Of a stretch of 64,000 nucleotides of DNA, positions 29,389-56,952 are shown in pieces. The stretch spans positions 3,519 through 67,518 of the forward strand of contig CAZSFZ010000001.1 of assembly GCA_964606385.1 (NCBI GenBank), written 5' to 3'. Below the pieces are notes generated by a model. The model saw only the letters and a program-made list of their open reading frames with translations. It had not been told where the DNA came from and did no database searches. The stretch is from an uncultured bacterium. Lineage in GTDB: Bacteria; Omnitrophota; Omnitrophia; Omnitrophales; Aquincolibacteriaceae. Position 1 is the first letter of the stretch; every line of letters begins with the position of its first letter. The position numbers were made by a program, and so were the translations under genes.

Positions 29389-29396
29389 GCGTCGGA

Positions 29397-30797: not shown

Positions 30798-30861
30798 GGT
30801 AAAAACCTCTCTTTTTTTCTGTAATAACGGATCCCTAATTTCGTTCAGGATGGATCTTTAA

Positions 30862-33800
30862 TTACTTTTCCCCGCCGAACTCGAGCCAGGACTTTACGAT
30901 CGCCTTGGGCTCTTCGGCCTGCTGACCCAACTTCTCGCGCGCGCTGGCGTCTGTTGCCTCTTTCACCGCGAGAATATAGGCCTTCACTTCCTCCAGCTTG
31001 CCCTGCATCAGGTTGAGATTTGATTCCCCGCCCTTCATGACTTTTTTGATCTCATCGCCCACAAAACCGAGCGCCTTGGCCTGGTCGTTAGCGAGCGTCA
31101 CGAGGCGATTCACCAGCTCTTCGGTCTTTTTACCGGCATCACTGCTTTCTTTGGAAATCGCCGATGTCGCCTGCTGCACCTGTTCGAGGAGCGATTCAAA
31201 CTCTGCCATGCGATCCGTGATGGTCGGCTGCCCGTTCCGTTTACCGATCACTTCGTCAAGCTCCTTCACGGTATTCATGATGGTATAGGTCGAGGAATCA
31301 ATATCGGCAATTGTCTGTTCTTTATTACTGATCGCTTTCATGCCCGACCAATTCACATCCCCGGTACTCAGGTCGGCGATCCCCTGCCAATTGATCCCCG
31401 CCTTGGTCTGGGTGGCAAGGCCCTGCCAGCTCACGCCGCCCGTCATCACGGAAAGATCTTCCCAATTGATCCCCGCTTCGGTCAAAGCGTTCATATCCGT
31501 CCAGTTGATGCCGGCCACCGAAAGCCTGCTGATATCATCCCAATTTACGCCCGCTTCCGAAAGCACCGCGATCTCATCCCAATTCACGCCTCCCTCGGAG
31601 AGAGCGCGGATCCCGTTCCAATTCACGCCGGCATCAGTCATGGTCTTGAGATCGTTCCAATCGATGCCGGTCACGGAGAGGGTCCGGATATCGCTCCAGT
31701 TCACGCCCGCGGTCGTCATGACCGTCAGGTTGCTCCAATTAACGTTGGCGTCGGACATGGCGGCGATACTGTTCCAGTTGACTCCCTTCGCGGAAAGATC
31801 CTGCAATGCCTGCCAATTCACGCCCGCCAGGGACAGCGCCGTAAGTCCTTCCCAATTCACCCCGGCTTTGGAAAGAACATCCATCTCTGTCCAGTTGATC
31901 CCGGTTCGAGAAAGCGCCCGAAGATCGTTCCAGTTAATCCCGGCGCGCGAAAGAGCGTTGAAATCGCCCCAGTTCACGCCCGTACGGCTCAGCACGTTGA
32001 TATCAGTCCAATTCACCCCGGCTTTGGAGAGCGCCCCGAGATCCAGCCAGTTCACCCGGGCCTGGGTCAGACTGTTCAGATCCGACCAGTTGACGCCGGT
32101 TTTGGTGAGCACTTCTACATCCTGCCAGTTAACTCCGGCCGTCGAAAGCCTGCCGATGTCCTGCCAATTCACGCCTCCCATGGAAAGCTCGCGAATCCCC
32201 GTCCAGTTGATCCTGCTCCGCGAGAGCGCGTCAAGACCGGCCCAGTTCACGCCGGCTTTCGACAAAGCCCCCATATCCAGCCAGTTCACGCCCGCACGCG
32301 TCATGGTGTTCAGGTCCGCCCAGTTCACGCCGCCCACGGAAAGCGCCCGGATTCCGGTCCAGTTCACGCCCGCCTTGGAAAGAGTGCTCATATCAAACCA
32401 ATTCGTACCCGCCTTGGTCATCACCCCGAAGTCAGCCCAGTTCACACCTGTCCGTGAGATCACGCGCATGTCGGCCCAATTGACCCCCACACGGGACATA
32501 ACGCCCATATCCAGCCAGTTTACGCCGGCTTTCGAAAATACGCCGAGGTCGGCCCAGTTCACATCGCTTTCCGAGATCGTCTTCATCCCCGCCCAGTTCA
32601 CCTGGCCGCGGGACATAGCGTTAATCCCCAACCAGTTCACACCGGCTGCGGACATCAGCTGCATGTCCTGCCAATTAACATTCACTTTGGACATAACGCT
32701 GAAATCGCTCCAGTTCACGCCCGCGACTGAAAGACTGCGGATCCCGTTCCAATCCACCCCGGCCCTTGAGAGCACGTTGATCCCGCTCCAGTTCACCCCT
32801 GCACTGGACATATTGGCAAGATTATCCCAATCCACTCCCGCCTGCGTGATCATATTGATCCCGCTCCAGTTGATCGCAGCCTGCGACATCGTGGCAAGAT
32901 TGGTCCATGAAATGTTCGAACTCGCCATTTTCGCGAAATCGACCCAGTTGACGCGCGCCTTCGTGATCTCATTCATACCCGCCCAATTGACATTTGCCCG
33001 CGCCAGAAGATCCAAGTTACTCCAGTTCACACCCGCGCGCGTCATGAAGCCCAGGTCTGCCCAGTTCACGCGTGAATCCGACATCCGGTTGAACTCATTC
33101 CAGTTCACGCGCGCGCTGGTCATGGCCTGGAGATCCGTCCAGTTGACACGCGCCGTGGAAAGCTCACGAAGGTTGCTCCAGTTCACGCCCGACCGGGAAA
33201 GCGCGTCGATCCCCGACCAGTTCACACCTGCCGCCGTAAATCTTCCCATATCCGCCCAATTGATACCGGCACGCGTCATCACTTGAAAATCCGACCAGTT
33301 GATCCCTTCCCGAGTGATCACACGAAGATCGGCCCAATTCACCCCGGCCTTACTGAGGACATCAAATCCGGTCCAATTCACACCCGTCCTCGACAAGACC
33401 CCCATATCCAGCCAATTGACGCCCGCGCGCGAAAGTGCGTCGATCCCGCTCCAGTTCACGCCGCCGCGCGACATCACGCCGATATCATTCCAATTCACCT
33501 GGGCTTTCGCCATCCGGTCGAATTCCGCCCAGTTCACGCCCGCCCTCGAAAGAGCGTCGATGTTATTCCAGTTGACCCCGGAACGGGACATTCTTCCCAT
33601 ATCTTCCCAATTGATCCGGGCGGACGACATGCGATCAAATTCCGCCCAGTTGACCCCGGCTTTGGAAAGGGCTTCGATATTAAGCCAGTTCACGCCCGCC
33701 CGCGTCATCACGCCGAAATCACTCCAGTTGATATTGGCCGCGGCCATCCGGTTGAATTCACTCCAGTTCACGCCCGCGGTCGTCAAAGCCCGCATATCCA

Positions 33801-36800: not shown

Positions 36801-39800
36801 AGTTCACACCCGCGCGCGACATCACGTTCAGATCATCCCAATTCACTCCCCCGCGGGAAAGAGCCTGGATCCCGGACCAATTCATCCCCACCCGCGACAT
36901 GACATTGAGATCGGTCCAGTTCACGCCGCTTTCCGAAAGCGCCTGCATGCCGTTCCAATTCACCCCTGCTTTCGAAAAAGCCCCGATGTCCAGCCAGTTC
37001 ACACCCGCGCGCGACATCACATTGAGATCCGACCAGTTGATGTTCGTGCGGCTAATGACATCCAATCCGGACCAGTTCACATTCGCTTTTGACATCGCGC
37101 CCATATCCAGCCAGTTCACACCCGCGCGCGTCATCACATTGAGATCCGACCAGTTGATGTTCGTGCGGCTGATCACATCCAACCCGGACCAATTCACGCC
37201 CGCTTTGGACATCACGCCCATATCCAGCCAGTTCACGCCGCCACGGGAAAGTGCCTGCATCCCTTCCCAATTGACACCGCCGCGGGAGAGCGCGTCGATT
37301 CCCGACCAGTTCACGCCCGCCTTGGACATCGTTCCCATATCCAGCCAGTTCACACCCGCTCGCGTCATCACATTGAGATCCGACCAGTTGATATTCGTGC
37401 GGCTGATGACATCCAACCCGGACCAGTTCACGTTCGCTCTGGTAAGCGCACTCAGATCCATCCAGTTGACGCCCGCGCGAGTCAGGACGTTGAGATCCGA
37501 CCAATTGATATTCGTGCGGCTAATGACATCCAACCCGGACCAATTCACGCCGGCCTTCGACATCTCCCCGATATCCAGCCAGTTCACGCCTCCCAACGAA
37601 AGCGCCTGGATCCCGCTCCAATTCACTCCGCCCGCCGAGAGGGCCTGGATCCCGCTCCAGTTCACTCCGGCCTTGGACATCACACCCATATCGAGCCAGT
37701 TCACACCGCCGAGGGAAAGAGCCTGCATGCCTTCCCAGTTCACGCCGCCGCGGGAAAGCGCGTCAATGCCGGACCAATTCACGCCCGCCTTGGACATCGT
37801 CCCCATATCGAGCCAATTGACGCCCGCCTTGGACATAACATTTAAATCCAACCAATTGACGCCGCCCCTTGAAAGCGCATCGATCCCCGACCAGTTCACC
37901 CCGGCCTTCGACATCACGCTCATATCGAGCCAATTTACGCCGGTCTTCGACATCACATTCAGATCCGACCAGTTCACGCCGCCGACCGAAAGCGCCTGAA
38001 TCCCGTTCCAATTGACGCCCGCCTTGGAGAACGCTTCCATATCGAGCCAGTTCACGCCCGCACGGGACATCACATTAAGGTCAGTCCAGTTCACACCACC
38101 GCGGGAAAGCGCGTCGATCCCACTCCAGTTCACGCCAGCTTTCGAGAGCACGCCCATATCAAGCCAGTTCACGCCCGCCTTGGTCATCGTATTCAAATCA
38201 GACCAGTTGACGCCCGCACGCGTCAGGACATTCATATCCGACCAGTTCACACCGGCCTTCGACATGACATCCAGATTGGACCAGTTGACGCCCGCTTTTG
38301 AAAGCGTCCCCACATCCAGCCAGTTCACACCGCCGCGAGAAAGAGCGTCAATGCCGGACCAATTCACGCCAGCCTTCGACATGATCCCGATATCCAGCCA
38401 GTTCACGCCGCCGGAAGAAAGAGCCTGGAGACCGCTCCAATTGACGTCGCTTTGCGAAAGAACGCTCATGCCGCTCCAGTTCACACCGGCCTTCGACATT
38501 TCTCCCATATCCAGCCAATTCACGCCGGCCTTGGACATCACATTCAGATCCGACCAGTTCACGCCGCCAACCGAAAGCGCCTGAACCCCGCTCCAGTTCA
38601 CCCCTGCTCTGGAAAGAACCTGCATATCCAGCCAGTTCACGCCGCCTTTGGAGAGCGCATCAATGCCGGACCAATTCACACCGGCTTTAGAAAGCGCTCC
38701 CATATCCAGCCAGTTCACACCGGCTTTGGTCATCACATTGAGATCTGTCCAATTCACCCCCGTCTTGGAAAGCACATTGAGATCCGACCAGTTCACGCCG
38801 CCGACCGAAAGCGCCTGGATCCCATTCCAGTTAACGCCCGCTTTGGAGAGCACGCCCATGTCGAGCCAATTCACACCGCCGCGGGAAAGCGCGTCAATGC
38901 CCGACCAGTTCACACCGGCCTGCGAAAGAACGCCCATATCCAGCCAGTTCACGCCCGCTCTTGTCATTTTGTTCAGATCGGACCAATTCACGCCCGCTCG
39001 CGTCAAGACATTCCAGTCCGTCCAGTTCACCGCCGCGCGGGACATCACACCCATATCAAGCCAGTTCACCCCCGCCTTCGAAAGCGCGTTCAGATCCGAC
39101 CAATTCACGCCGCCTTTGGAGAGAGCGTCGATCCCTGACCAGTTCACGCCCGCTTTGGAGAGCACGCCCATGTCGAGCCAGTTCACACCCGCACGAGACA
39201 TCACATTAAAATCGGACCAGTTCACGCCGGTTTTCGAAAGAACATCGAGATCCGACCAATTCACGCCGGCACGGCTCATCACATTCATGTCGGACCAATT
39301 CACTCCCGCGCGGGACAACGCGTTCATGCCGGACCAGTTCACGCCCGCCTTGGAAAGAACATCAAAGTCGGCCCAATTAACGCCGGCCTTGGACATCGTC
39401 CCCATATCCAGCCAGTTCACGCCGGCCTTGGACATCACATTAAGATCGGACCAGTTCACACCCGCTTTCGACAGCACATCCAGATCCGACCAGTTCACAC
39501 CGCCGACTGATAGCGCCTGGATCCCGTTCCAGTTCACGCCCGCACGGGACAGAGCGTTCATCCCGCTCCAGTTCACTTGTCCGCGGGAAAGCGCGTCGAT
39601 CCCCGACCAATTGACTCCCGCTTTTGAGAGTACGCCCATATCAAGCCAGTTCACACCCGCGCGCGACATCACATTAAAATCGGACCAGTTCACGCCGGTC
39701 TTCGAAAGGACATCGAGATCCGACCAGTTGATCCCCGCACGCGTCAGGACATTCATATCCGACCAATTCACCCCGGCTTTGGACATCACGTTCAAGTCAG

Positions 39801-45800: not shown

Positions 45801-48800
45801 CCCCGCTCCAGTTCACACCCGCTTTCGACAGCACGCCCATGTCCAGCCAGTTCACTCCGGCCTTCGACATCACATTCAGATCCGACCAGTTGATCCCCGT
45901 TCTCGAAAGAACGTTCATGTCGGACCAATTCACGCCGGCTTTCGAGAGCACATCGATCCCCGACCAGTTCACGCCGGCGCGCGACATCACGTTGAGATCC
46001 GTCCAATTCACTCCAGCCTTTGAAAAGACGTCGATCCCGCTCCAGTTGAGACCCGCCTTGGAAAACACGCTCAGATCCGACCAATTCACACCCGCACGCG
46101 AGAGCGCGTTCAGATCCGCCCAGTTCACACCGGCTTTCGAGAGCACATCGAGATCCGCCCAATTCACACCGCTACGGGAGAGAGCATCGAGTCCGGTCCA
46201 GTTGACGCCGGCGCGTGACATCACCTGAAGGTCCGTCCAGTTCACGCCCGTACGCGTAAGCACGTTCATATCCGACCAGTTCACCCCCGCCTTCGAGAGC
46301 ACGCCCATATCGGCCCAATTCACGCCGGCCTTGGACATCACATTGAGATCCGTCCAGTTTACGCCCGTTTTCGAGAGCACATCGATCCCCGACCAGTTCA
46401 CCCCCGCCTTCGAAAGCGTTCCCATGTCCAGCCAGTTCACACCCGCCTTGGACATCACGTTGAGATCCGACCAATTGACCCCTGCGCGCGTCAGCACATT
46501 CATGTCGGACCAGTTGATCGCGGCTTTTGAGAAAACCTCGAGATCAAGCCAATTCACCCCCGCTCGGGACATAGCGTTAAGATCCGCCCAGTTCACGCCC
46601 GTCTTGGAAAGCACATCCAGGTCGGACCAATTGACGCCCGCGGCCGCAAGCGCCTGGATCCCGCCCCAATTGATCCCGGCACGCGACATAACATTGAGAC
46701 CGGACCAATTGAGGCCGGCACGGCTCAAAGCGTTCATGTCCGCCCAGTTCACACCCGCGCGACTCATCACGTTCATATCCGCCCAGTTCAGGCCCGCCTT
46801 GGACAAGGTTCCGATATCGATCCAGTTCACGCCCGCTTTCGACATGACGTTGAGATCCGCCCAGTTCACGCCGGCTTTCGAAAGCACGTCGATCCCGCTC
46901 CAATTGACTCCGGCCTTCGACAGCACGCCCATATCCAGCCAGTTCACACCCGCCTTGGAAAGCGCGTCCATGCCGCTCCAGTTCACACCGGTCCTTGAAA
47001 GTACGTTCATGTCGGACCAGTTCACTCCGGCTTTCGACATCGCCCCCATATCCAGCCAATTCACGCCCGCACGGGTCATGACATTCAGATCGGTCCAGTT
47101 CACGCCGGTTTTGGAAAGCACGTCCAGATCCGACCAATTCACGCCGGCCTTGGACAGGGCCCCCATATCCAGCCAGTTCACGCCCGCTTTTGAGAGGGCA
47201 TCGATCCCCGTCCAATTCACGCCCGTTTTCGAAAGAACGTTCAGGTCCGCCCAATTCACGCCCGTTCTCGACATCACATTAAGATCGGTCCAGTTCACGC
47301 CCGTGCGCGTCAGCACATTCAGATCCGTCCAATTCACGCCGGCTTTGGAAAGAACATCCATCCCGCTCCAGTTCACGCCGGCCTTCGACAGAACATTAAA
47401 ATCCGTCCAGTTCACGCCGCCGCGCGAAAGCGCGTCGATCCCGGTCCAGTTCACCCCGGCTGCGGAAAGCGCCCCCATATCCAACCAGTTCACGCCCGCT
47501 TTCGTCATCACGTTCATATCGGACCAATTAATGCCCGCGCGCGTCAGCACATTCAGATCCGTCCAATTCACACCCGCTTTAAAGAGAACGTCCATCCCGG
47601 TCCAGTTCACGCCGGCCCGCGACATCGCCTGGAGGTCTGTCCAGTTCACGCCCGTTTTGGAAAGCACGTTCAAGTCCGCCCAATTCACGCCCGATTTCGA
47701 CAAAATATCGATCCCGCTCCAGTTCACACCGGCTTTCGACAGCACACCCATATCCAGCCAGTTGATGCCGGTCTTCAGCATAACATTAAGATCGGTCCAG
47801 TTGAGTCCCGCGCGGGTCAGAACATTGAGGTCCGACCAGTTGACCGCGGCCGTCGAGAGCGCGTTGAGGTCCTGCCAATTGACCCCCGCTTTCGAAAGTA
47901 CGTTCAGATCTGACCAGTTGACGCCGCTCCGTGACAACGCATCCATTCCGCTCCAGTTCACACCCGCCGCCGCGAGCGCCTGCATGCCGCTCCAGTTCAC
48001 GCCGCTTCGCGAGAGCGCGTCAATGCCCGTCCAGTTCATCCCGGCTTTCGACAGCACGCCGATATCCGACCAGTTGATCCCCGTTTTTGTGATCACCTGA
48101 AGGTCCGTCCAATTAACACCCGTTCTTGAGAGCACGTTCAGATCCTCCCAATTCACCCCCGCTTTCGATAACACATCGATGCCAGACCAATTCACGCCGG
48201 CTTTGGACAAGGCCCCCATATCCAGCCAGTTCACGCCGGCCCTGGACATCGTCTGAAGGTCTGTCCAGTTGACACCCGTCTTCGAGAGCACGTTCAGATC
48301 CGTCCAGTTCACACCGGCCTTCGACATCGCGCCTACGTCCAGCCAGTTCACGCCCGCTTTCGAGAGGACATTCAGATCCGTCCAGTTCACGCCGCCTCGC
48401 GAGAGCGCGTCGATGCCAGACCAGTTCACGCCCGCTTTGGACATCACCTGAAGATCCGTCCAGTTTAAATTCGCCCGGCTCAAGACGTTGAGATCAGACC
48501 AGTTCACGCCAGCCTTGGAAAGAACATTGAAATCCGTCCAGTTGATCCCGGCCTTGGACATGGTCCCCATCACGGACCAATTCACGCCGGCCTTGGACAT
48601 CACATTGAGATCGGCCCAGTTCACGCCGGCCGCGGAAAGCATCCCCACATCCAGCCAGTTCACGCCAGCCCTGGAAAGAACATTGATCCCCGTCCAGTTC
48701 ACCCCGGCTTTGGACATCACGTTCAAGTCCGTCCAGTTCACCCCCGCTTCCGAAAGAGCATCCACGCCGCTCCAATTCACACCCGCTTTGGAAAGCGCTC

Positions 48801-51800
48801 CCACGTCCGTCCAATTCACCCCAGCCTTGGACATAGCATCGATCCCGCTCCAGTTCACGCCGGCCACCGCAAGCGCCTGGATCCCGGCCCAGTTCACGCC
48901 TCCCCGGGACAGCGCATTGATCCCGGTCCAGTTGATCCCGGCCTTGGACAGCACGTTGAGGTCGGCCCAATTCACTTCAGATTTGGAGAGCGCGTCGATC
49001 CCGACCCAGTTGACCCCGGCCTTGGACAGTACATTAATGTCCGTCCAGTTCACGCCGGCCGCCGAAAGCGCCTGCACCCCGCTCCAATTAACGCCTGCCC
49101 TTGAGAGAACATCGATCCCGATCCAATTCACACCGGCCCTTGAAAGAGCCTGGATCCCGCTCCAGTTCACGCCGCTACGCGACAGGGCCTCGATCCCGCT
49201 CCAGTTCACGCCGGCCTTGGACAGTACGTTAATATCCGTCCAGTTCACGCCGGCCCGCGAGAGGGCGTTCATGCCGCTCCAGTTCACACCTTGTTTGGAA
49301 AGCACTTCCATGTCCAGCCAGTTCACCCCGGCGGTCGAAAACGCCTGGATCCCGGTCCAGTTGACACCGGCTTTTGAGAAAACATTAAGGTCGGTCCAGT
49401 TCACGCCCGCTTTCGAAAGCACATCGATCCCTGTCCAATTCACACCTTGATTGGAAAGAACGCCCATATCGGTCCAGTTGATCCCGGCTCTGGAAAGAGC
49501 ATCCATGCCGCTCCAGTTGATCCCGATCCGTGAAAGAACGTTAAGGTCCGACCAGTTCACGCCCGATTTGGAAAGCGCATCCACCCCGCTCCAGTTGATC
49601 CCAGCCCGTGAAAAAACATTCAGATCCGTCCAGTTCACACCCGCTTTCGAAAGGGCATCGAGGCCGCTCCAGTTCATGCCCGCTTTGGAAAGAGCGCCGA
49701 TATCCAGCCAGTTCACGCCCGCCGCCGAAAGCGCTTGGATCCCGCTCCAGTTCACGCCGGTTCTGGAAAGAACATTAAGGTCCTGCCAGTTAAGACCCGT
49801 TTTGGAAAGCAATCCGAAATCGACCCAGTTCACGCCCGCGGCCGCGAGAGCCTGCATGCCGTTCCAGTTCACGCCGGTTTTGGACAGAACACCCATATCC
49901 AGCCAGTTCACACCGGCCCTCGACATCACATCGATGCCCGTCCAGTTAACGCCGGCTTGCGAAAGGGCGTTGATGTCGCTCCAGTTCACATTGGCCCGCG
50001 ACAAAACCTGAAGATCCGTCCAGTTCACGCCCGCCCTGGAGATCACATCCACGCCGCTCCAATTGACGCCGGCCTTGGACAAGGCTCCGATATCCAGCCA
50101 GTTCATACCGGCCCGCGACATCACGTTAAGGTCGGCCCAGTTGATCCCCGTCACGGAAAGGTTTTGAAGATCGGACCAGTTGATCCCCGCTTTGGAGAGA
50201 ACGTTCAGGTCGATCCAGTTCACGCCGGCCTTGGAAAGAACATCCATACCGTTCCAGTTCACCCCTGCTTTCGACATCACATCAATGCCCGTCCAGTTCA
50301 CGCCCGCTTTGGAGAGCGCGTCGATCCCGGTCCAGTTGACGCCCATGCGTGAGATCACCTGAAGGTCCGTCCAATTCACACCGGCCCGGGAAAGCACATT
50401 GAGATCGGTCCAGTTGACGCCGGCCTTGGAAAGAGCGTCCATCCCGCTCCAGTTCACACCCGCCCGGGAGAGCGCGTTAAGATCCGACCAGTTGACACCC
50501 GTACGCGAAAGAACGTTCAGGTCTTCCCAATTGACCCCTGCCTTCGAAAGCACATTAAGGTCGGTCCAGTTCACTTGACTTGCCGCTAGCGCCTGCATTC
50601 CGGACCAGTTGACACCCGCCGCGGAAAGCAGATCAAGATCGGACCAGTTCACACCCGCTTTCGAGAGCACGCCGAAATCGGACCAGTTCACGCCGGCTTT
50701 GGAGAGCACGCCGAAATCAGTCCAGTTCACACCGCTCACCGAAAGCGCGTTCAGGCCGTCCCAGTTCACGTTCGCCGTGCTCATGACGCGCATGTCGGTC
50801 CAGTTCACATTCGCTTTGGTCAGCGCCGCGAGATTGTCCCAGTTGATGGTCTCCGACCAGTTGACCTTGGCGCCGGTCATCTTGGCGAAGTCATCCCAGT
50901 TCGCGCCTGCCCGCGACATCCGCTGGATATCCGCCCAGTTGACGCCGGCCTGCGCCATCACCTGAAGATCCGTCCAGTTGATCCCGATACCCGCCATCTT
51001 GCCCACGTCCAGCCAGTTCACGCCGCTCGCCGAAAGCGCCTGAATCCCGGACCAATTGACGCCGCCCACCGAAAGGGCTTCGATGCCGCTCCAATTGACG
51101 TTGGCTTTACTCAACTTGGAAAGATCGGACCAGTTCACCCCCACCGCCGACAAAGCACCGATATCCTCCCAGTTGATCCCGGCCTTCGCCAAGCGCCCGA
51201 TATCGCTCCAATTAACTCCGGACGTCGTCAGTTGCGCAAGGTCCTGGAAATTGATATTTGAAGTGCTGAACTGCATGATCTCCGACCAGCGGATCCCGGC
51301 ACGCGTAAGCGTACGGACGTCCTCCCAGTTCATGCCTTTCGAGGACATTTCGGCAAGATCATTCCAGTTAACACGCGCCTCCGACATAATCTTCAAATCG
51401 TCCCAGTTCGCTTTGGCGACCGCGATCAAAATATCCCCTGTCCGTTTGTAAAGGGTCTCGGCTGAATTCGCCCCAACCGCCGTCTTGATCGCCTGAATAT
51501 CGTCCCAGTTCATCAGATCGGTCTTGGCTTTGATGTCGGTGGTTTTGGTGTCGATGCTGCCTAAAGTAGAAACCGCGCCGGCGATGCCGCCCTGGATCGC
51601 CGTGTTGTAGGCAAATCGCGAGGAATAATCATTCCCTTTATAAGTGATGGTGACATCGGCCACGTAAGTATCGGAATTGGTGGGGGGCGTCCAGGATTGG
51701 CGGAACACGCTGTTATTCTTGATCGTTGCAGCGCCGGGAGCCGTAACCGCATCCCAGTTTTTATCATAGACGGTGATGGAGATATGCCCGGATGAAAAAC

Positions 51801-52374
51801 CCGAGTCCGAAATGATGGCGCCCGCACGCTCGATCCAGCTGTTGATCAAATAAGCATTCGATTCAAAGCTCAGCTCGGAACGGACCGTGTATTCGCCGAC
51901 CAGAATGCTGAACGAGTCCGAAGTCGCGGAAATGATGCCGCTGTCCGAGGCCTGAAGCGTGTACAGCTCTCCGGCCTTGTCAATATTGAGCCCCTTCCCC
52001 GAAAAATCCGCGACGCCCGCCACCGCGTCCATCGAGACCGTTCCCCGCAGAGTGCCGCCGGTAGGATTATTAAGAATGGCGAGAGTGATCGTATCCGTCG
52101 CATCCGTCACCACATTGTTGTTAATATCGAGGATCTGAACGACGGGGGCCGGATCAAAGGTCTGACCTGCGGCCGTGGACTGGGGCTGGGTGGAAAAATA
52201 AAGTTTATAAGCCGTCGCGGCGGCACTGCCCTCCACCGAACTGGACCCGTCATAACTTCCGCCCGTGTAGATCGCGGCCTGGGCCGGGATGGAACCGAAC
52301 ACAAAAAAGAGAATGGAAAGCAAGGCGATCAGCCTGGAACCTCGGACCTTATTTAAAACAGAGGGGGCGTTCAT
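30862..52374 (-). CDS. Giant (7,170 aa) secreted repeat protein: signal peptide and Ig-like N-terminal region, about 500 tandem 13-residue GVNW repeats, helical C-terminal ~200 aa
   Basis: Single uninterrupted 21.5-kb ORF. ATG overlaps the upstream stop (ATGA). Signal peptide MNAPSVLNKVRGSRLIALLSILFFVFGSIPAQA. Repeat consensus [LM]S[KR][AT]GVNW[STLA][DG][LMI][NDG][VA], e.g. LSKAGVNWSDLNVMSRAGVNWLDMGVLSKAGVNWSGIDALSK. Confidence 0.85.
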   Translation of the reverse strand: MNAPSVLNKVRGSRLIALLSILFFVFGSIPAQAAIYTGGSYDGSSSVEGSAAATAYKLYFSTQPQSTAAGQTFDPAPVVQILDINNNVVTDATDTITLAILNNPTGGTLRGTVSMDAVAGVADFSGKGLNIDKAGELYTLQASDSGIISATSDSFSILVGEYTVRSELSFESNAYLINSWIERAGAIISDSGFSSGHISITVYDKNWDAVTAPGAATIKNNSVFRQSWTPPTNSDTYVADVTITYKGNDYSSRFAYNTAIQGGIAGAVSTLGSIDTKTTDIKAKTDLMNWDDIQAIKTAVGANSAETLYKRTGDILIAVAKANWDDLKIMSEARVNWNDLAEMSSKGMNWEDVRTLTRAGIRWSEIMQFSTSNINFQDLAQLTTSGVNWSDIGRLAKAGINWEDIGALSAVGVNWSDLSKLSKANVNWSGIEALSVGGVNWSGIQALSASGVNWLDVGKMAGIGINWTDLQVMAQAGVNWADIQRMSRAGANWDDFAKMTGAKVNWSETINWDNLAALTKANVNWTDMRVMSTANVNWDGLNALSVSGVNWTDFGVLSKAGVNWSDFGVLSKAGVNWSDLDLLSAAGVNWSGMQALAASQVNWTDLNVLSKAGVNWEDLNVLSRTGVNWSDLNALSRAGVNWSGMDALSKAGVNWTDLNVLSRAGVNWTDLQVISRMGVNWTGIDALSKAGVNWTGIDVMSKAGVNWNGMDVLSKAGVNWIDLNVLSKAGINWSDLQNLSVTGINWADLNVMSRAGMNWLDIGALSKAGVNWSGVDVISRAGVNWTDLQVLSRANVNWSDINALSQAGVNWTGIDVMSRAGVNWLDMGVLSKTGVNWNGMQALAAAGVNWVDFGLLSKTGLNWQDLNVLSRTGVNWSGIQALSAAGVNWLDIGALSKAGMNWSGLDALSKAGVNWTDLNVFSRAGINWSGVDALSKSGVNWSDLNVLSRIGINWSGMDALSRAGINWTDMGVLSNQGVNWTGIDVLSKAGVNWTDLNVFSKAGVNWTGIQAFSTAGVNWLDMEVLSKQGVNWSGMNALSRAGVNWTDINVLSKAGVNWSGIEALSRSGVNWSGIQALSRAGVNWIGIDVLSRAGVNWSGVQALSAAGVNWTDINVLSKAGVNWVGIDALSKSEVNWADLNVLSKAGINWTGINALSRGGVNWAGIQALAVAGVNWSGIDAMSKAGVNWTDVGALSKAGVNWSGVDALSEAGVNWTDLNVMSKAGVNWTGINVLSRAGVNWLDVGMLSAAGVNWADLNVMSKAGVNWSVMGTMSKAGINWTDFNVLSKAGVNWSDLNVLSRANLNWTDLQVMSKAGVNWSGIDALSRGGVNWTDLNVLSKAGVNWLDVGAMSKAGVNWTDLNVLSKTGVNWTDLQTMSRAGVNWLDMGALSKAGVNWSGIDVLSKAGVNWEDLNVLSRTGVNWTDLQVITKTGINWSDIGVLSKAGMNWTGIDALSRSGVNWSGMQALAAAGVNWSGMDALSRSGVNWSDLNVLSKAGVNWQDLNALSTAAVNWSDLNVLTRAGLNWTDLNVMLKTGINWLDMGVLSKAGVNWSGIDILSKSGVNWADLNVLSKTGVNWTDLQAMSRAGVNWTGMDVLFKAGVNWTDLNVLTRAGINWSDMNVMTKAGVNWLDMGALSAAGVNWTGIDALSRGGVNWTDFNVLSKAGVNWSGMDVLSKAGVNWTDLNVLTRTGVNWTDLNVMSRTGVNWADLNVLSKTGVNWTGIDALSKAGVNWLDMGALSKAGVNWSDLDVLSKTGVNWTDLNVMTRAGVNWLDMGAMSKAGVNWSDMNVLSRTGVNWSGMDALSKAGVNWLDMGVLSKAGVNWSGIDVLSKAGVNWADLNVMSKAGVNWIDIGTLSKAGLNWADMNVMSRAGVNWADMNALSRAGLNWSGLNVMSRAGINWGGIQALAAAGVNWSDLDVLSKTGVNWADLNAMSRAGVNWLDLEVFSKAAINWSDMNVLTRAGVNWSDLNVMSKAGVNWLDMGTLSKAGVNWSGIDVLSKTGVNWTDLNVMSKAGVNWADMGVLSKAGVNWSDMNVLTRTGVNWTDLQVMSRAGVNWTGLDALSRSGVNWADLDVLSKAGVNWADLNALSRAGVNWSDLSVFSKAGLNWSGIDVFSKAGVNWTDLNVMSRAGVNWSGIDVLSKAGVNWSDMNVLSRTGINWSDLNVMSKAGVNWLDMGVLSKAGVNWSGVDALSRSGVNWADLNVMSKAGVNWTGIDALSRSGVNWADLNVLSRTGVNWADLNVMSRAGVNWADMDVLSKAGVNWSGIDVLSKAGVNWTDLNVMSKAGVNWADMGVLSKAGVNWSGMDALSRSGVNWADMNVMSKAGVNWSGIDVLSRSGVNWTDLNVLSRTGVNWSDLNVMSKAGVNWLDMGVLSKAGVNWSGIDVLSKAGVNWADMNVLSKAGVNWSGIDVLSKAGVNWSDLNVLSRTGVNWADLQAMSRAGVNWSDLDVFSKAGVNWSGIQALSVGGVNWSDLNVMSKAGVNWSDLNVLSKTGVNWSDMNVLTRTGVNWADLNVMTRAGVNWSDMGVMSKAGVNWSDMNVLTRTGVNWTDLNVMSLAGVNWTGIDVLSKAGVNWTDMNVLTRTGVNWADMNVMSKAGVNWSDMGVLSKAGVNWSGIDVLSKAGVNWSDLNIMSKAGVNWLDMGAMSKAGVNWSDMNVLTRAGVNWTDLNVMSRAGVNWSDMNVLSRMGVNWNGLDVLSKAGVNWSDMNVMSRAGVNWSGIDVLSKAGINWTDMNVLTRTGVNWADMNVMSKAGVNWSDMGTLSKAGVNWDGIQALSVGGVNWSDLNVMSKAGTNWLDLGAMSKAGVNWSDLNVLSRTGVNWSGLNALSTAGVNWLDMGVLSKAGVNWSGIDVLSKAGINWSDFNVMSRAGVNWADLNVLSKTGVNWADMNALTLAGVNWSDLNVMTRAGVNWADMNVLSKAGVNWSGIDALSRSGVNWADMNVLSRTGVNWSGIDVLSKAGVNWADMNVLSRTGVNWADMNVMSKAGVNWLDLGALSKAGVNWSGIDVLSKAGVNWTDLNVMSKAGVNWADMGVMSKAGVNWSDLNVLSRTGVNWSDFNVMSRAGVNWLDMGVLSKAGVNWNGIQALSLGGVNWSGIDALSRAGVNWLDMGVMSKAGVNWSDLDVLSRTGVNWSDFNVMSRAGVNWADMGTLSKAGVNWSGIDVLSKSGVNWADFNVMSKAGVNWNGLQALSVGGVNWAGIDVMSKAGINWSDMNVMSRAGVNWSDFNVLSKAGVNWSDMNVLTRAGVNWSDLNVMSKAGVNWSDMGVLSKAGVNWSGIDALSKGGVNWSDLNVMSRAGVNWADMSAMSQAAVNWSDFNALTRAGVNWSDMNVMSRAGVNWLDMGVLSKAGVNWSGIDALSKGGVNWADLNIMSKAGVNWLDMGAMSKAGVNWSDLNVLTRTGVNWADLNVMSRAGVNWLDMGVLSKAGVNWSGIDALSKGGVNWADLNIMSKAGVNWSGLQALSVGGVNWSGIDVLSKAGVNWTDLNVMSKAGVNWADMGVMSKAGVNWSDLNVLSRTGVNWSDFNVMSRAGVNWLDMGVLSKAGVNWNGIQALSLGGVNWSGIDALSRAGVNWLDMGVMSKAGVNWSDLDVLSRTGVNWSDFNVMSRAGVNWADMGTLSKAGVNWSGIDVLSKAGVNWADLNVMSKAGVNWADMGVLSKAGVNWSGMDVLSKAGVNWTDMNVLTRAGVNWADMGVLSRAAVNWEDWNALSRTGINWSDLNVMSRAGVNWLDMGVLSKAGVNWSGMDVLSKAGVNWMDMNVMSRAGVNWSDMGVLSKAGVNWSGIDALSKGGVNWSDMNVMSRAGVNWLDMSAMSKAAVNWSDLNVLSRTGVNWSDLNVMSRAGVNWLDMGTMSKAGVNWADFDVLSKAGVNWSGLNVMSRAGVNWDGIQALSVGGVNWSGIDALSRASVNWSDLDVMSKAGVNWSDMNVMSRAGVNWSDLNVLSRTGVNWSDFNVMSRAGVNWLDMGVLSKAGVNWAGIDVLSKAGVNWADLNVFSRAGVNWADMGVMSKAGVNWSDMNILTRTGVNWSDMNVMTRAGVNWLDMGVLSKAGVNWSGIDALSKGGVNWSDLNIMSKAGINWLDMSVLTSASVNWADLNVLSRTGVNWSDFNVMSRAGVNWLDMGVLSKAGVNWSGIDALSRGGVNWSGIDALSKAGVNWLDMGTMSRAGVNWAGIDALSRGGVNWADLNVMSKAGVNWSDMNVLTRAGINWSDLDVLSKTGVNWSDFNVMSRAGVNWLDMGVLSKAGVNWSGIDALSRGQVNWSGMNALSRAGVNWNGIQALSVGGVNWSDLDVLSKAGVNWSDLNVMSKAGVNWLDMGTMSKAGVNWADFDVLSKAGVNWSGMNALSRAGVNWSDMNVMSRAGVNWSDLDVLSKTGVNWSDFNVMSRAGVNWLDMGVLSKAGVNWSGIDALSKGGVNWSDLNALSKAGVNWLDMGVMSRAAVNWTDWNVLTRAGVNWSDLNKMTRAGVNWLDMGVLSQAGVNWSGIDALSRGGVNWLDMGVLSKAGVNWNGIQALSVGGVNWSDLNVLSKTGVNWTDLNVMTKAGVNWLDMGALSKAGVNWSGIDALSKGGVNWLDMQVLSRAGVNWSGVQALSVGGVNWSDLNVMSKAGVNWLDMGEMSKAGVNWSGMSVLSQSDVNWSGLQALSSGGVNWLDIGIMSKAGVNWSGIDALSRGGVNWLDVGTLSKAGVNWSNLDVMSKAGVNWSDMNVLTRAGVNWSDLNTMTKAGVNWLDMGVLSKAGVNWSGIDALSRGGVNWTDLNVMSRAGVNWLDMEAFSKAGVNWNGIQALSVGGVNWSDLNVMSKTGVNWLDMSVMSKAGVNWSGIDALSRGGVNWLDLNVMSKAGVNWLDMGTMSKAGVNWSGIDALSRGGVNWEGMQALSLGGVNWLDMGVMSKAGVNWSGIQALSAGGVNWSGIQALSLGGVNWLDIGEMSKAGVNWSGLDVISRTNINWSDLNVLTRAGVNWMDLSALTRANVNWSGLDVISRTNINWSDLNVMTRAGVNWLDMGTMSKAGVNWSGIDALSRGGVNWEGMQALSRGGVNWLDMGVMSKAGVNWSGLDVISRTNINWSDLNVMTRAGVNWLDMGAMSKANVNWSGLDVISRTNINWSDLNVMSRAGVNWLDIGAFSKAGVNWNGMQALSESGVNWTDLNVMSRVGMNWSGIQALSRGGVNWDDLNVMSRAGVNWLDMGALSKAGVNWSGIQALSRGGVNWDDLNVMSKAGVNWLDMGALSKAGVNWNGMQALSRGGVNWDDLNVMSRAGVNWQDMGVFSKAGVNWAALNELTRANINWADLNVMTTGVNWLDLGVMSKAGVNWNGIQALSRGGVNWDDLNTMSKAGVNWLDMGTLSKAGVNWNGIQALSRGGVNWDDLNVMSRAGVNWLDMGTLSKAGVNWNGIQALSIGGVNWSDLNVMSQAGVNWLDLRAMTIANVNWAALNELTRTNVNWSDLNVMTSGVNWLAMGLLTQSGVNWTDINVMSRAGVNWEDFTALSTSNVNWEGFNVMSRAGVNWSGIQALSVGGVNWMDLDVMSRAGVNWLDMGALSKAGVNWSGIQTLSAGGVNWDDLNVMSRAGVNWLDMGALSKAGVNWNGIQALSVGGVNWTDLNVMSRAGVNWLDMGIMSKTGVNWSGIDALSRSGVNWSGIDVMSRAGVNWLDMGALSKAGINWSGIDVLSRTSVNWLDLGEMSKAGVNWLSMGALSIAGINWSDLNVMSRVGMNWLDMGALTKAGVNWLDMGALSKAGVNWAEFNRMAAANVNWSDFSTMTREGINWGSIGSLSKAGVNWEEFNRMSAAGVNWDNLGSMTQAGVNWLDMGALTKAGVNWAGLDAISRTSVNWDDMRAMTRAGVNWLSIGTLSTAGVNWAEFNRMSAAGLNWDDFGVMTRAGVNWLDMGSLSKSGVNWGGMDALSRAGVNWLDMGALTQAGVNWAGLNAISRTSINWNDLNVMTRAGVNWTNMGDMTTAGVNWIALNNIIGSDVNWSGLNAITRAGINWIDFGTMTRAGVNWDGLETISKTNVNWNDLNVMTRAGVNWLDIGALTDAGINWSGINTISRTGINWNDLRVMTRSGINWVDMGALTAAGVNWEGFNAISRTNINWDDLHVMTRAGVNWLDMGALSKAGVNWAEFNRMAQANVNWSDFGVMTRAGVNWFNIEALSKAGVNWAEFDRMAKANVNWNDMGVMSRAGVNWLDMRALTTAGVNWSEFNRMAAANINWSDFGVMTRAGVNWLNIEALSKAGVNWAEFDRMSSARINWEDMGRMSRSGVNWNNIDALSRAGVNWAEFDRMAKAQVNWNDIGVMSRGGVNWSGIDALSRAGVNWLDMGVLSRTGVNWTGFDVLSKAGVNWADLRVITREGINWSDFQVMTRAGINWADMGRFTAAGVNWSGIDALSRSGVNWSNLRELSTARVNWTDLQAMTSARVNWNEFNRMSDSRVNWADLGFMTRAGVNWSNLDLLARANVNWAGMNEITKARVNWVDFAKMASSNISWTNLATMSQAAINWSGINMITQAGVDWDNLANMSSAGVNWSGINVLSRAGVDWNGIRSLSVAGVNWSDFSVMSKVNVNWQDMQLMSAAGVNWLGINAMSRGQVNWAGMKTISESDVNWADLGVFSKAGVNWLDMGVMSRVGVNWADMRVISRTGVNWADFGVMTKAGTNWFDMSTLSKAGVNWTGIRALSVGGVNWADLNTMTRAGVNWLDMGALSKAGVNWAGLDALSRSRINWTGIRELSMGGVNWQDIGRLSTAGVNWQDVEVLTKTGVNWSDLNSLTQARVNWLDLGALSKAGVNWTDINVLSRTGVNWGDFNALSRAGINWNDLRALSRTGINWTEMDVLSKAGVNWEGLTALSLAGVNWQALQDLSAKGVNWNSIAAMSDANVNWSNLTVMTTAGVNWSDIRTLSVTGIDWNDLKTMTDAGVNWNGIRALSEGGVNWDEIAVLSEAGVNWDDISRLSVAGINWTDMNALTEAGINWEDLSVMTGGVSWQGLATQTKAGINWQGIADLSTGDVNWSGMKAISNKEQTIADIDSSTYTIMNTVKELDEVIGKRNGQPTITDRMAEFESLLEQVQQATSAISKESSDAGKKTEELVNRLVTLANDQAKALGFVGDEIKKVMKGGESNLNLMQGKLEEVKAYILAVKEATDASAREKLGQQAEEPKAIVKSWLEFGGEK
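31345..51510 (-). repeat. About 20-kb array of degenerate 39-nt tandem repeats (encoding the 13-aa GVNW unit), with a 117-nt (3x13 aa) super-period in places
   Basis: The plus strand shows ccagttcac (reverse complement GTGAACTGG = VNW) recurring every 39 nt from ~31.35 kb to ~51.5 kb. The units are diverged at the nucleotide level. Confidence 0.85.
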
Positions 52375-54014
52375 GACGCGGTCCTCGCAAGCCGGCCGCC
52401 ATAATCCTTGACCCGGGTGGCATCCGTCGTTCCGGCCTTATAGCGGTTGGACATTTCCATGTACGCCGTGGCCGTTTCGGACCAGCCCCCGCCCCGAAGC
52501 CCCGAACCGCCGGCACCGGTCACGCCGCGAGCCGTGCTGGTCGCATCCAACCCCGGCCAGTCAAGGTTCGTGGCATTTCCTTCATAAGAACTTGTGGCCG
52601 TCAAAACACCATCGCCATGCGTGCCGCTAAAACCCCGTCCCGCCGCATTGCCGAGCGTGACCGCGCGTTCCCACACATTGCCGGACAATTCCATATTTCC
52701 GTAATAACCCGCCGCGGAGCCGGCGCGCGTCGTGGTGGAAGCCGCCGCGAAGATCCCCGCGCGAAGCGGCCCGCGATTCGGCCCGTCGCCTCCGGTCATG
52801 TTGGTATTACTGAAATTCACCGTCGCATTGGAGGTGCTGCAGGTTTCCGTTCCGTCTTCCGCGCCACCGCTGACTACAGCACAGACCGTTGCGGAGGTCC
52901 CGCCCCAGGCATAAGCCGAAGTCGTCGGATAATCGGATCCCCGGGCCATTTTTTCGTATTCAAGTTCCGAAAACGGCCTCAAGGCCGCCCAGTCCGCGTA
53001 AGCGGCAACATCCATCCAGGAAAGATAGCCGCAAGCACGGTCGGACCGGTCCGTTGTGGCATCGCCGCTTGTCCAGGCGATCGTATTGCGATCCACCACG
53101 GAGTCGCTGTTTTTCCCCGAAGCCGCAGTGATGTCGCGCGTTGCTTTTTGCGCCGCCGTAAGCGTGTTGAAAAAAGCGATCCACTGCCCTTCGGTGATCT
53201 CATATTTCATGGCATAGAAAGCCGCGTAGCCTTTCGGGAACGCCGCGCTCACCTCAAAAGAGGCGCCGCTCGAGGCGTCATTCGCACCGCTGTCCGTGTT
53301 GTAATACCACTGGGAAGCTCCGGTCCCGAAGGAAAGCCCCGCTTCGCTGTTGATCGCGCCCGGCAAACTTGTCGCACTTCCCCCGAATTCCATTTCGCCG
53401 TTCGTCCCGCTGTTCCCGTCCCCCGCGTAGAAACCTCCTTGCGGGATATAGACCATTTCGACCGCGAAAACCCGGATGAGTGTGTTCGCGCCGCTCGCGT
53501 TCGCATCACTGACGCCATCCTGACCGTAGTCCCAGAGAAGCTGAATGCTGGTCGTGGACAAGGACCCGCTTCCCTGCGCGGAACGCTGGATGAAGCATCC
53601 TTTTTTGTCAGCCGGAACGAGAATGTCAATCGCTGTCCCGGAGCCGCGCGAAAAACCCGTAGGATTCAGCCCGGCTGTTTTAAGTGTGGCATGGTTCCAG
53701 GTGGATCCGGAATCCGTGGAGTATTTGACGAAGAGCCAGGCCGCGTCATAATTCGCGGCATCCCGCCAGGAATTATCCCAAGAGATATTGTATTGGACTT
53801 TGATCGTGTTCGCCGTGGAATCCTGCTCGACAAGTGAAGCGCTGGAAACGGCAAGATTATTCGCGAATGAAGAAATCGGAAAGGAGAGGAAGAAGAGGAA
53901 GACGCCCTGAGCAAGCTTCCATCCGATTTTCCTGTCTAACTCCTTGTAGCAAAAGCGACTACAAGCACCTAAATGCCGTAAAAAGGTTTTGAGCATAAAC
54001 TCCACTTGTCTCAA
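52371..54014 (-). CDS. FGE-sulfatase (SUMF1/GldJ/GldK-type) domain protein with ~200-aa N-terminal extension and signal/anchor
   Basis: C-terminal domain motifs YAMKYEITEGQW, ELEYEKMARGSDYP, GNVWERAV, LRGGGWSE match the FGE fold. Hydrophobic N-terminal segment LAQGVFLFFLSFPISSFA. Its stop overlaps the giant-gene start. Confidence 0.7.
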   Translation of the reverse strand: MRQVEFMLKTFLRHLGACSRFCYKELDRKIGWKLAQGVFLFFLSFPISSFANNLAVSSASLVEQDSTANTIKVQYNISWDNSWRDAANYDAAWLFVKYSTDSGSTWNHATLKTAGLNPTGFSRGSGTAIDILVPADKKGCFIQRSAQGSGSLSTTSIQLLWDYGQDGVSDANASGANTLIRVFAVEMVYIPQGGFYAGDGNSGTNGEMEFGGSATSLPGAINSEAGLSFGTGASQWYYNTDSGANDASSGASFEVSAAFPKGYAAFYAMKYEITEGQWIAFFNTLTAAQKATRDITAASGKNSDSVVDRNTIAWTSGDATTDRSDRACGYLSWMDVAAYADWAALRPFSELEYEKMARGSDYPTTSAYAWGGTSATVCAVVSGGAEDGTETCSTSNATVNFSNTNMTGGDGPNRGPLRAGIFAAASTTTRAGSAAGYYGNMELSGNVWERAVTLGNAAGRGFSGTHGDGVLTATSSYEGNATNLDWPGLDATSTARGVTGAGGSGLRGGGWSETATAYMEMSNRYKAGTTDATRVKDYGGRLARTAS

Positions 54015-56945: not shown

Positions 56946-56952
56946 TTTTTTC

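Follow-up and report, generated by a model that had tools for sequence, protein, structure and literature searches.

A giant protein of 13-residue GVNW repeats encoded between secretin and F-type ATPase genes in Candidatus Omnitrophota

What kind of protein is specified by a 21.5-kb open reading frame (ORF) that repeats one 13-residue motif over almost its whole length, and what might such a protein do between the genes of a secretin and those of an F-type ATPase? This question is raised by the genome of an uncultured bacterium of the Omnitrophota (family Aquincolibacteriaceae; assembly GCA_964606385.1), a phylum of widespread, ultra-small and probably predatory or parasitic bacteria. We analysed a 64,000-nucleotide stretch of its contig CAZSFZ010000001.1 (positions 3,519 to 67,518 of the forward strand), hereafter the window, whose own numbering is used throughout. 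From comparison with its relatives, we conclude that the giant protein encoded by this ORF is a founding-type member of an undescribed and unannotated Candidatus Omnitrophota family.

A 7,170-codon gene and its repeat array

The ORF occupies positions 30862 to 52374 of the minus strand, starts with ATG and runs for 7,170 codons with no internal stop codon, yielding a protein with a computed mass of 769 kDa and a computed pI of 4.95. An array of ~515 units of 13 residues, with the consensus LSKAGVNWSDLNV, constitutes 93% of this protein (residues ~321-7015; positions 31330 to 51414, minus strand), in agreement with an earlier note on this DNA that had described a single real giant ORF of ~500 such units. 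The giant protein contains 522 tryptophans, and 507 of the 521 successive spacings between them measure exactly 13 residues, with a longest run of 247 units free of insertions or deletions (indels). Protein autocorrelation reaches 0.53 at lag 13, whereas lags other than multiples of 13 give 0.054. The per-position consensus reads [LM]-S-[KR]-A-G-V-N-W-x-[DG]-[LMI]-x-[VA], the asparagine being present in 98% of the units. Cysteine is absent from all 7,170 residues, and both proline and tyrosine are absent from the 6,692-residue repeat zone.

The units are also organized at longer periods. Residue identity within the array climbs to 0.60 at lag 39 and to 0.62 at lag 78, and Tandem Repeats Finder, a check that the earlier note had proposed for periods of 39 and 117 nt, returned both of these together with 234 and 351 nt. 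Adjacent units share ~61% identity at the DNA level, with 66, 74 and 44% identity at codon positions 1, 2 and 3, respectively. Units this diverged, and least conserved at third codon positions, point to an old array in which purifying selection acts on the protein, as the earlier note had suspected.

A k-mer diagonal scan for exact internal repeats revealed one 503-nt pair (copy 1, positions 42860 to 43362, residues ~3005-3172; copy 2, positions 41456 to 41958, residues ~3473-3640; both on the minus strand), offset by 1,404 nt, or 36 units, the next longest exact repeat being 67 nt. Identity falls at once to ~70% in the flanks of the duplicate, which stems either from gene conversion in the recent past or from a join made during assembly, and which is the sole site where a short-read assembly could gain or lose 36 units in frame. 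That the ORF arose as an artefact of assembly, or is a pseudogene in decay, might be suggested by this duplicate, by the breaks that short-read assemblies of most genomes show within the giant gene, by a 1-nt frameshift in one orthologue (L125, described below), and by the absence of the exact giant protein from the searched protein collection. However, the 21.5 kb are free of stops, the units are diverged with no exact repeat longer than 67 nt besides the one duplicate, the codon-position pattern is that of purifying selection, and orthologues are as large or larger, one of them on the chromosome-level record OY759724.1. In addition, the 3' end of the gene is identical in an independent assembly: a Logan contig from run SRR15237811 matches positions 27397 to 32797 of the window at 100% identity, including the last 1.9 kb of the giant gene, and stops within the repeat array. 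We thus regard an artefact or a pseudogene as most improbable. The antisense strand of the array is open too, for up to 2,526 codons (positions 38648 to 46228, plus strand), with repeats of the type ...SQLIPVS....

Relatives in Omnitrophota assemblies

The Pfam scan covered the N-terminal 390 residues, a 260-residue sample of the repeats and the C-terminal 255 residues, the remainder being the same repeat. With the repeat, Pfam gave Lysostaphin_N as its best match, which at 26.7 bits falls short of the cut-off of 60; NCBIfam gave nothing meaningful, and phmmer returned 0 matches in the PDB at E<=10. The earlier note had found no known repeat family to fit, and these searches indeed gave no curated match. 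The Pfam matches to Lysostaphin_N, which is likewise periodic at 13 residues, to Ntox33 and to CW_7 are artefacts of periodicity or composition. A match to the class B (YWTD) repeat of the low-density-lipoprotein (LDL) receptor (E 3e-4, 22 bits, accuracy 0.54) was also rejected: it rests on [IV]-x-W-[ST]-D, and the period here is 13, not 43. YWTD beta-propellers consist of six blades of ~43 residues with one YWTD strand each. Period-13 profiles draw false positives, an example being the eukaryote-like protein P0044, which carries an unrelated 13-residue repeat (HATPHAVTETSVD).

Searches of large protein sets, which the earlier note had also proposed, did recover homologues that share the period: 20 and 23 matches among 5.8 billion protein clusters, and 476 matches at E<=1e-3 among 1.84 billion representatives, part of these last being spurious period-13 proteins. 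At the DNA level, one genome per GTDB species was scanned with a degenerate pattern of three GVNW codon blocks 39 nt apart, which matched at least 118 eight-kb blocks, many of them at contig ends. Among the matches listed, nearly all blocks belong to Candidatus Omnitrophota/Omnitrophica metagenome-assembled genomes or to TPA bins labelled 'uncultured Planctomycetales', suggesting that the family is all but confined to assemblies of Candidatus Omnitrophota. The family consensus, drawn from 10,490 units of 124 loci, reads [LM]-[ST]-x-[ATS]-G-[VI]-N-W-x-D-[ILF]-x-V, with conservation of 99% for the asparagine, 87% for the glycine and 76% for the aspartate. The giant protein displays all the traits that mark this family, namely the 13-residue motif [LM]-[ST]-x-x-G-[VI]-N-W-x-D-[ILF], the conserved N-terminus, a C-terminal K-[ST]-W-x-E and a bitopic protein encoded downstream.

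How large are its orthologues? ORFs stitched from 8-kb blocks measure at least 6,881 residues and 509 units on OY759724.1 ('chromosome: 1', 3.36 Mb), and at least 4,875, 4,398 and 4,176 residues on CAZNDZ010000001, CAZFNI010000004 and JAUIER010000004, respectively. The orthologue of locus L125, on a 105-kb contig (JGI 3300020219, Ga0163146_10000109; L125 positions 10001-21749), comprises 582 residues, the 1-nt frameshift and a further 16,204 residues, i.e. ~16,800 in all if read through; in the first 3,334 residues past the junction, all 255 tryptophan spacings equal 13 and the only super-period is 78 residues. The OY759724.1 orthologue keeps the 13-residue register without an indel for up to 6,591 residues. 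Such a strict register, over 247 units here and 6,591 residues there, speaks strongly for regular packing of the units and against a linker without order. At the other extreme, protein P0042 is a seemingly complete member of 900 residues and ~27 units, which could be a collapsed assembly.

The super-periods of the orthologues are 26/156, 26/78 or 78/156 residues, or there is none. Since the 39-residue super-repeat is missing or different in these proteins, its comparison among orthologues indicates that it is lineage-specific and reflects duplication history. The earlier note had taken 3x13 = 39 residues to mean a three-faced solenoid; this reading does not survive orthologue super-periods of 26, 78 and 156 residues or their absence.

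Homologues of ~380 residues that looked short proved to be the C-terminal parts of larger genes that scaffold gaps, contig ends or frameshifts had cut up. For example, the ORF of locus L001 extends more than 1,300 residues upstream, across a scaffold gap and off the contig, and public gene calls place spurious antisense ORFs over its array (positions 2-2404 and 2870-3724 of L001, minus strand of that locus). Contig breaks and such calls explain why the family has been hidden: gene callers and assemblers systematically mishandle the giant gene, leaving the family nearly invisible in protein databases.

The unit also occurs in a second architecture with ~13 GVNW-like copies (P0047, P0048, P0049, P0050, P0059 and P0040). 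In these proteins, a signal peptide is followed by a GLUG/M26_N (IgA-protease-N-like) or Laminin_G_3 head, then by the repeats and by Ig-like, InlB-B-repeat or SKICH-like domains. The presence of the ~13-copy unit in multidomain proteins with signal peptides supports a role as an extracellular stalk.

The pattern scan of viral contigs gave two matches, both due to chance. Separately, a Microviridae-like genome (L127; ENA ERZ1744934 NODE_425, 4,075 nt) with a Phage_F capsid, a Chlamy_scaf scaffold and a REP initiator carries, at the position of the VP2/pilot protein, a gene (positions 145-1074, P0017) for a 309-residue protein with four to five N-terminal GVNW units. This may be a phage of Omnitrophota that borrows the repeat of its host, which hints at an association of GVNW units among themselves or with the fibre of the host.

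Fold of the 13-residue unit

The earlier note had favoured a beta-solenoid and had proposed structure prediction on repeat segments as a check; in such a model, the 13-residue unit, or the 39-residue triplet, would be one coil, with stacked tryptophan and asparagine ladders along a rigid rod of ~0.25 micrometres. Two AlphaFold2 runs were made, the first on 24 units with an alignment of 67 segments from the window (mean pLDDT 39), and the second on the last 12 units and the C-terminal domain with 13 orthologues (pLDDT 53-71 over the repeats). Both runs, with low to moderate confidence, folded each unit into one alpha-helix of 8-9 residues and a loop of 4 residues, and no beta strand appeared in any of the 24 and 12 modelled units, again at low confidence. 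The prediction thus pointed to helices and away from the beta-solenoid.

Features of the sequence were compared with this outcome. Averaged over the family, the hydrophobic moment of the putative helix peaks at 110-120 degrees and has half that size at 160-180 degrees. According to established helix-capping rules, the segment V(N')-N(N-cap)-W-x-D(N3)-[LI](N4) reads as a hydrophobic staple plus a capping box, with the glycine as the C' residue. The capping pattern, the position of the moment peak and the absence of proline from 6,692 residues agree, and for this reason we infer that the unit is helical. On these grounds a helix-turn repeat, probably stacked as an alpha-solenoid, is the probable fold; a beta-solenoid is unlikely, and disorder or other folds share what is left.

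Several observations may nonetheless be cited for the beta-solenoid. An invariant asparagine and glycine and a stacked aromatic are typical of such folds, V-N-W and [IL]-x-V might be taken for brief in/out strands, the mean beta propensity equals the helix propensity, the AlphaFold2 models are of low confidence, and the profile match to the YWTD beta-propeller repeats, although weak, reaches E 3e-4. Against these stand the helix without any strand in every unit of both runs and the hydrophobic moment, which at 160-180 degrees is half its value at 110-120 degrees. Steric reasoning is also unfavourable: a coil of 13 residues cannot bury the tryptophan plus three or four large aliphatics, and a triangular coil of 39 residues would have a hollow core. 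Finally, the 39-residue period is not kept in orthologues, and the YWTD match is patchy, heavily gapped and of period 43, not 13. Taken together, these points leave the beta-solenoid rod an unlikely model.

The estimate of a rod hundreds of nm long outlives this change of fold, since it is plausible for any regular solenoid: 515 units would measure roughly 490, 245 or 165 nm with one, two or three helices per ~0.95-nm layer, respectively. The predicted helix-turn repeat shares tandem units in an elongated superhelix with the beta-solenoids of TmAFP (12-residue unit) and ice-nucleation proteins (16-residue unit), with the 24-residue LRV repeat and with ARM/HEAT repeats. Among the helical repeats described so far, none is known to us whose unit has 13 residues or whose copies number in the hundreds. 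Between two helices, the G-[VI]-N turn may resemble the G-[IV]-G hairpin of helix-hairpin-helix (HhH) motifs; the Pfam models of HhH, LRV, ARM and HEAT gave no match at E<=1 to the scanned segments of the giant protein. A unit that has no relative in Pfam or the PDB and stays in perfect register for 500 to ~1,250 copies is a candidate for a new repeat fold and for a natural, length-tunable 'molecular ruler'.

The asparagine that would cap each helix could alternatively be conserved as a glycosylation site, the array then being an N-glycan carrier, i.e. a mucin-like, heavily glycosylated coat or matrix protein made with the nearby oligosaccharyltransferase. The giant protein does contain 265 N-W-[ST] sequons, in 51% of its units, and genes for an STT3/PglB-type oligosaccharyltransferase (positions 12606-15161), two GT2 glycosyltransferases (11150-12181 and 1798-2499) and a PMT-like transferase (2611-4245) lie within 20-30 kb on the same contig. 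However, the serine or threonine is unconserved in the family, where sequons occupy a median of 31% of the units (range 0-79%), and the acidic residue at position -2 that Campylobacter-type PglB needs (D/E) is found at 3 of the 265 sequons only. That the asparagine is invariant even where there is no sequon points to a structural role, and the strict 13-residue register likewise argues for a folded repeat. With a sequon share of 0-79% of units, N-glycosylation is ruled out as the family-wide cause of the invariant asparagine, and we consider the glycan-carrier explanation very unlikely.

Export signal, conserved locus and proposed role

The giant protein begins with a Sec-type signal peptide (residues 1-34; positions 52273 to 52374, minus strand) comprising a K/R n-region, a hydrophobic core and an AQA/A cleavage motif. 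It was recognized by inspection of the sequence, by hydropathy and by conservation, the signal peptide being kept in five orthologous N-terminal fragments (P0018, P0022, P0023, P0025 and P0028). By the same inspection, the protein has the N-terminal Sec/Tat signal peptide expected of a substrate of a type II secretion system (T2SS). This signal peptide is the single peak of the hydropathy profile, and no further transmembrane (TM) segment was detected over the full length. On both the signal peptide and the lack of TM segments, the earlier note had been right.

The signal peptide precedes a conserved non-repeat N-terminal region (residues 35-~320; positions 51415 to 52272, minus strand), defined by alignment with the five orthologue fragments and matched by tblastn in 37 of 126 loci. 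It opens with an IYTGGSYDGSS motif, followed by ~250 residues with two probable beta-rich domains. The earlier note had called this region Ig-like, a label that is unconfirmed, as none of six orthologues gave a Pfam or PDB sequence match for it. At the other end, a conserved C-terminal domain of ~150 residues (residues ~7016-7170; positions 30865 to 31329, minus strand), delimited by orthologue alignments and detected by tblastn in 16 of the 126 loci, ends in ...AIVKSWLEFGGEK, and its orthologues end in K-[ST]-W-x-E. It is predicted to form long helices, four of them in the second AlphaFold2 run (low confidence), and, like the N-terminal region, has no match in Pfam, NCBIfam or the PDB. Many orthologues (P0012, P0013, P0003 and P0021; alignment columns ~240-390) carry, between the array and this domain, a second repeat of ~25-30 residues with the core 'G-x-x-x-D-x-S-T-x-x-T-L-F-G-x-I', which the giant protein of the window does not have.

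The genes around the giant ORF all lie on the same, minus strand. Directly upstream is a gene for an FGE-sulfatase-like secreted protein (positions 52371 to 54014; Pfam PF03781, a weak match of 34 bits; signal peptide), whose stop overlaps the giant gene's start by 4 bp as ATGA, with a GAGGA ribosome-binding site 7 nt 5' of the giant gene's ATG. From this arrangement, the giant gene is read as translationally coupled to the FGE-like gene; the same 4-bp overlap is found in locus L126. A classical FGE modification of the giant protein was ruled out, as it has no cysteine and no CxPxR motif. In the machine for type IX secretion and gliding, the FGE-like lipoproteins GldJ, GldK and PorK serve as structural components. 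Further upstream is an outer-membrane module (positions 54292 to 58541, minus strand), which encodes a TPR protein (54292-55203), a secretin (55200-56996), a weakly GspC-like protein (56953-57630) and an AAA_22 ATPase of the ExeA/MshM type (57606-58541).

Downstream of the giant gene, positions 29397 to 30797 (minus strand) encode a 466-residue bitopic protein with a signal peptide, two periplasmic modules, a C-terminal TM helix and a short, Lys/Pro-rich cytoplasmic tail. The two modules, of ~125 residues each, are internal duplicates (E 2e-12) with helical segments. This partner has no relative in Pfam, NCBIfam or the PDB and is found in 93 protein clusters, the named ones being from Omnitrophota, bar one on a 3-kb contig labelled Geobacteraceae. 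Next comes an F-type ATPase set (positions 24223 to 29388, minus strand), encoding alpha (27886-29388), epsilon (27598-27876), c (27351-27581), a b/delta fusion (26598-27338), a divergent gamma (25683-26585) and beta (24223-25683). Within this set, no gene for subunit a is present, and the genes stand end to end, leaving no space for one. In NCBIfam, alpha and beta exceed the cut-offs set for ordinary atpA/atpD and by these scores look like normal F1 subunits, gamma reaches 38 bits against a cut-off of 194, and against the cut-offs for gliding ATPases alpha and beta reach 391 versus 600 and 410 versus 850, respectively. The set is followed by an inner-membrane/pseudopilus module (positions 17701 to 24226, minus strand) that encodes a GspE/PilB-type ATPase (21881-24226), GspF (20672-21874), GspG (20212-20697), a GspJ-like pseudopilin (19212-19811) and a PilM/PilN fusion (17701-19224), with GspK (10078-11301) further downstream. 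The GspE/PilB-type ATPase has an N-domain of the MshEN type, which binds cyclic di-GMP (c-di-GMP), and a C-terminal extension of ~200 residues with PilZ-like motifs (RKYQR ... ENISAGG; RxxxR...NxSxxG), and its L004 orthologue carries a PilZ annotation. These domains suggest, at the level of motifs, that the machine is controlled by c-di-GMP.

Is this arrangement conserved? The proteins of the window were compared by tblastn with the 126 loci, the 8-kb blocks limiting the neighbour counts that follow. Upstream of the giant N-terminus, an FGE-like gene was found in 27 of the 37 loci, a TPR gene in 23 and a secretin gene in 19. Downstream of the C-terminal domain, the 466-residue membrane protein was found in 16 of 16 loci and ATPase alpha in 15. 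Three independent contigs (L001, L004 and L005) share one order: the giant gene, the membrane protein, alpha, epsilon, c, b/delta, gamma, beta, GspE, GspF and GspG. Gene comparison thus gives a conserved order of secretin module, (FGE-like gene), giant gene, bitopic protein, F-type ATPase without subunit a (a-less) and GspE/F/G.

Loci that combine F-type ATPase and type-4a-pilus genes, called 'symbiotic', occur in all Omnitrophota classes, and the phylum commonly has giant ORFs of more than 20 kb, which show little conservation and have no known function (Seymour et al. 2023, PMC10066038). The same authors compare the ATPases of symbiotic loci to the Mycoplasma gliding ATPases (PMC10066038). 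Giant genes beside T2SS-like loci were described by West-Roberts et al. 2023 (bioRxiv 10.1101/2023.11.21.568195), in classes that have either many TM helices with SecA-DEAD/HEAT or dockerin/TSP3 repeats. In a 2026 preprint (10.64898/2026.06.07.730766), 15% of long Omnitrophota proteins are without any Pfam domain and were left for follow-up. The literature searched contains no mention of this repeat, nor does it name any giant protein among the constant members of the ATPase/pilus locus, and 'GVNW' in this sense was not found in it. The window carries the symbiotic locus, its F-type ATPase set standing beside the GspE/PilB, GspF and pilin-like genes. Whereas no giant repeat protein or bitopic protein was reported for that locus by Seymour et al., both lie here between the secretin and the ATPase genes, in all checkable loci. 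Relative to the literature searched, what is new is the giant repeat protein and its bitopic partner as parts of the published locus; the locus and the giant ORFs were known. The giant repeat protein joins these two published puzzles, and, being conserved and definable by its sequence, offers proteomics, antibody work and cryo-tomography something specific to aim at in the sole available enrichment culture.

The known giants of the phylum are of other kinds. Archaeovorins and Dockerin-type giants share with the giant protein the ORF of more than 20 kb, the gspD/E/F-type neighbours, a proposed role in cell attachment and the breaks in assembly. By contrast, they have 30,000-147,000 residues, many TM helices and SecA-DEAD, HEAT, TPR, dockerin, TSP3 or enzyme domains, whereas the giant protein, with one signal peptide, has neither a TM helix nor a Pfam domain, and its 13-residue repeat goes unmentioned in those texts. 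With its signal peptide as the only hydrophobic segment and no Pfam match in the scanned segments, it lacks the many TM helices, SecA DEAD and HEAT domains of Archaeovorins. No dockerin, EF-hand or TSP3 domain of the Dockerin type was detected either, and the protein is devoid of cysteine and not Asp-rich in the manner of TSP3. Giant repeat adhesins of Gram-negative bacteria, such as LapA, SiiE and MpIBP, share a general design with it, namely a terminal domain, a long tandem-repeat extender of species-variable copy number and an anchoring end. The units of these RTX or bacterial Ig-like (BIg) adhesins are Ig-like beta-sandwiches of ~100 residues, stiffened by calcium, and the proteins use type I secretion with a C-terminal signal. 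The giant protein differs in its 13-residue, predicted helical unit, its N-terminal Sec signal and its T2SS-like neighbours; no Big or RTX match was found in Pfam, and none of the machinery beside it is of the type I kind.

We propose that the giant protein is a Sec-exported helical-repeat fibre that is handled by the adjacent machine, which resembles a T2SS or a type 4 pilus (T4P), and that serves as a tether or adhesin, a reading to which we give about an even chance. An exported, machine-handled protein is favoured by the conserved signal peptide, the coupling to a secretin/pseudopilus locus, the lack of TM helices and the occurrence of the unit in secreted proteins. The protein would consist of the signal peptide, a head of ~290 residues, hundreds to more than 1,000 in-register units and the helical C-terminal domain of ~150 residues. 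Each unit would form a short amphipathic helix, W-x-D-[LI]-x-V-[LM]-[ST]-x-A, at whose end G-[VI]-N makes a tight turn, with the asparagine as N-cap, the aspartate as its capping-box partner, the valine and leucine as hydrophobic staple and the glycine as C-cap. Consecutive helices would pack as an alpha-solenoid-like rod, thin and regular, and 515 units would make it roughly 0.15-0.5 micrometres long, which would equal or exceed the length of an Omnitrophota cell. The giant gene would be co-transcribed with the genes of the T2SS/T4P-like machine and of the a-less F-type ATPase. After Sec export into the periplasm, the protein might transit through, or be displayed at, the adjacent secretin with the aid of the pseudopilus machine. 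Its C-terminal domain would then be kept at the envelope, possibly by the downstream bitopic protein, while the N-terminal head would be held far from the cell, as a tether or adhesin directed toward host or prey cells.

Several points weigh against this proposal. Chou-Fasman propensities are neutral between helix and strand, the export, surface location and adhesion of the giant protein are read from sequence and gene context, and no recognisable binding domain was detected in the N-terminal head by Pfam and PDB sequence searches. Substrates of T2SSs normally fold in the periplasm, which is ~25 nm wide, so that a rod hundreds of nm long is an awkward substrate and its route across the outer membrane is conjectural. 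Moreover, since alpha and beta pass the ordinary atpA/atpD cut-offs, the adjacency of the ATPase could be mere conserved gene order.

Could the giant protein instead never leave the cell envelope? It would then be a mechanical element of the periplasm or envelope (a line, belt or leg) in a new motor made with the a-less ATPase and the pilus-like machine, its C-terminal domain being tied to the bitopic protein, loosely as Mycoplasma mobile combines an F1-like ATPase with giant leg proteins. This idea draws on the place of the giant gene, which in every checkable locus has the secretin module on one side and the ATPase genes on the other, with the membrane protein always next, and on the composition of the ATPase set, alpha, beta, gamma, epsilon, c and b/delta but no a, since without subunit a it cannot translocate ions by the usual route. 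The c-di-GMP-type sensory domains of GspE (MshEN; PilZ in the L004 orthologue; RxxxR...NxSxxG in the window) would fit a regulated machine of this kind. However, alpha and beta score above the atpA/atpD cut-offs and well under those of the Mycoplasma gliding ATPases, the GVNW module is also part of ordinary multidomain secreted proteins that have no link to such loci, and, to our knowledge, no mechanism couples a c-ring to a periplasmic fibre. The likeness to the gliding system of M. mobile, with huge surface proteins (Gli349, Gli521) and an F1-ATPase-derived motor, is by analogy only; that organism has no outer membrane, no secretin and no c-ring in its motor. We hold this envelope-bound motor element to be fairly unlikely.

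A broader extension of the proposed tether or adhesin would unite the fibre, the bitopic partner, the a-less ATPase and the secretin/pseudopilus gene products in one new envelope-spanning organelle. Its ATP-synthase-derived motor and pilus-like machine would deploy, tension or retract the fibre, hundreds of nm long, with which ultra-small Omnitrophota cells would catch, hold or move on hosts, and the 13-residue unit would represent a new fold class, with the shortest known helical solenoid unit, in up to ~1,250 copies free of indels. Taken as one, these claims are unlikely to hold together.

Other genes of the window bear less directly on the giant protein. A gene for a two-partner-secretion (TPS) transporter of the ShlB/FhaC type (positions 62951-63997, minus strand) is truncated by the window edge, and its TpsA partner is not in view within the window. 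The giant protein was considered for this part and rejected, because its N-terminal 390 residues hold no TPS domain (Pfam at E<=1, bar a chance match to a domain of unknown function) and the TpsB gene is 10 kb off, past unrelated genes. Beside the transporter gene are a LemA gene and two TPM-domain genes (61032-62839), and positions 58615-60453 encode a GH77 4-alpha-glucanotransferase.

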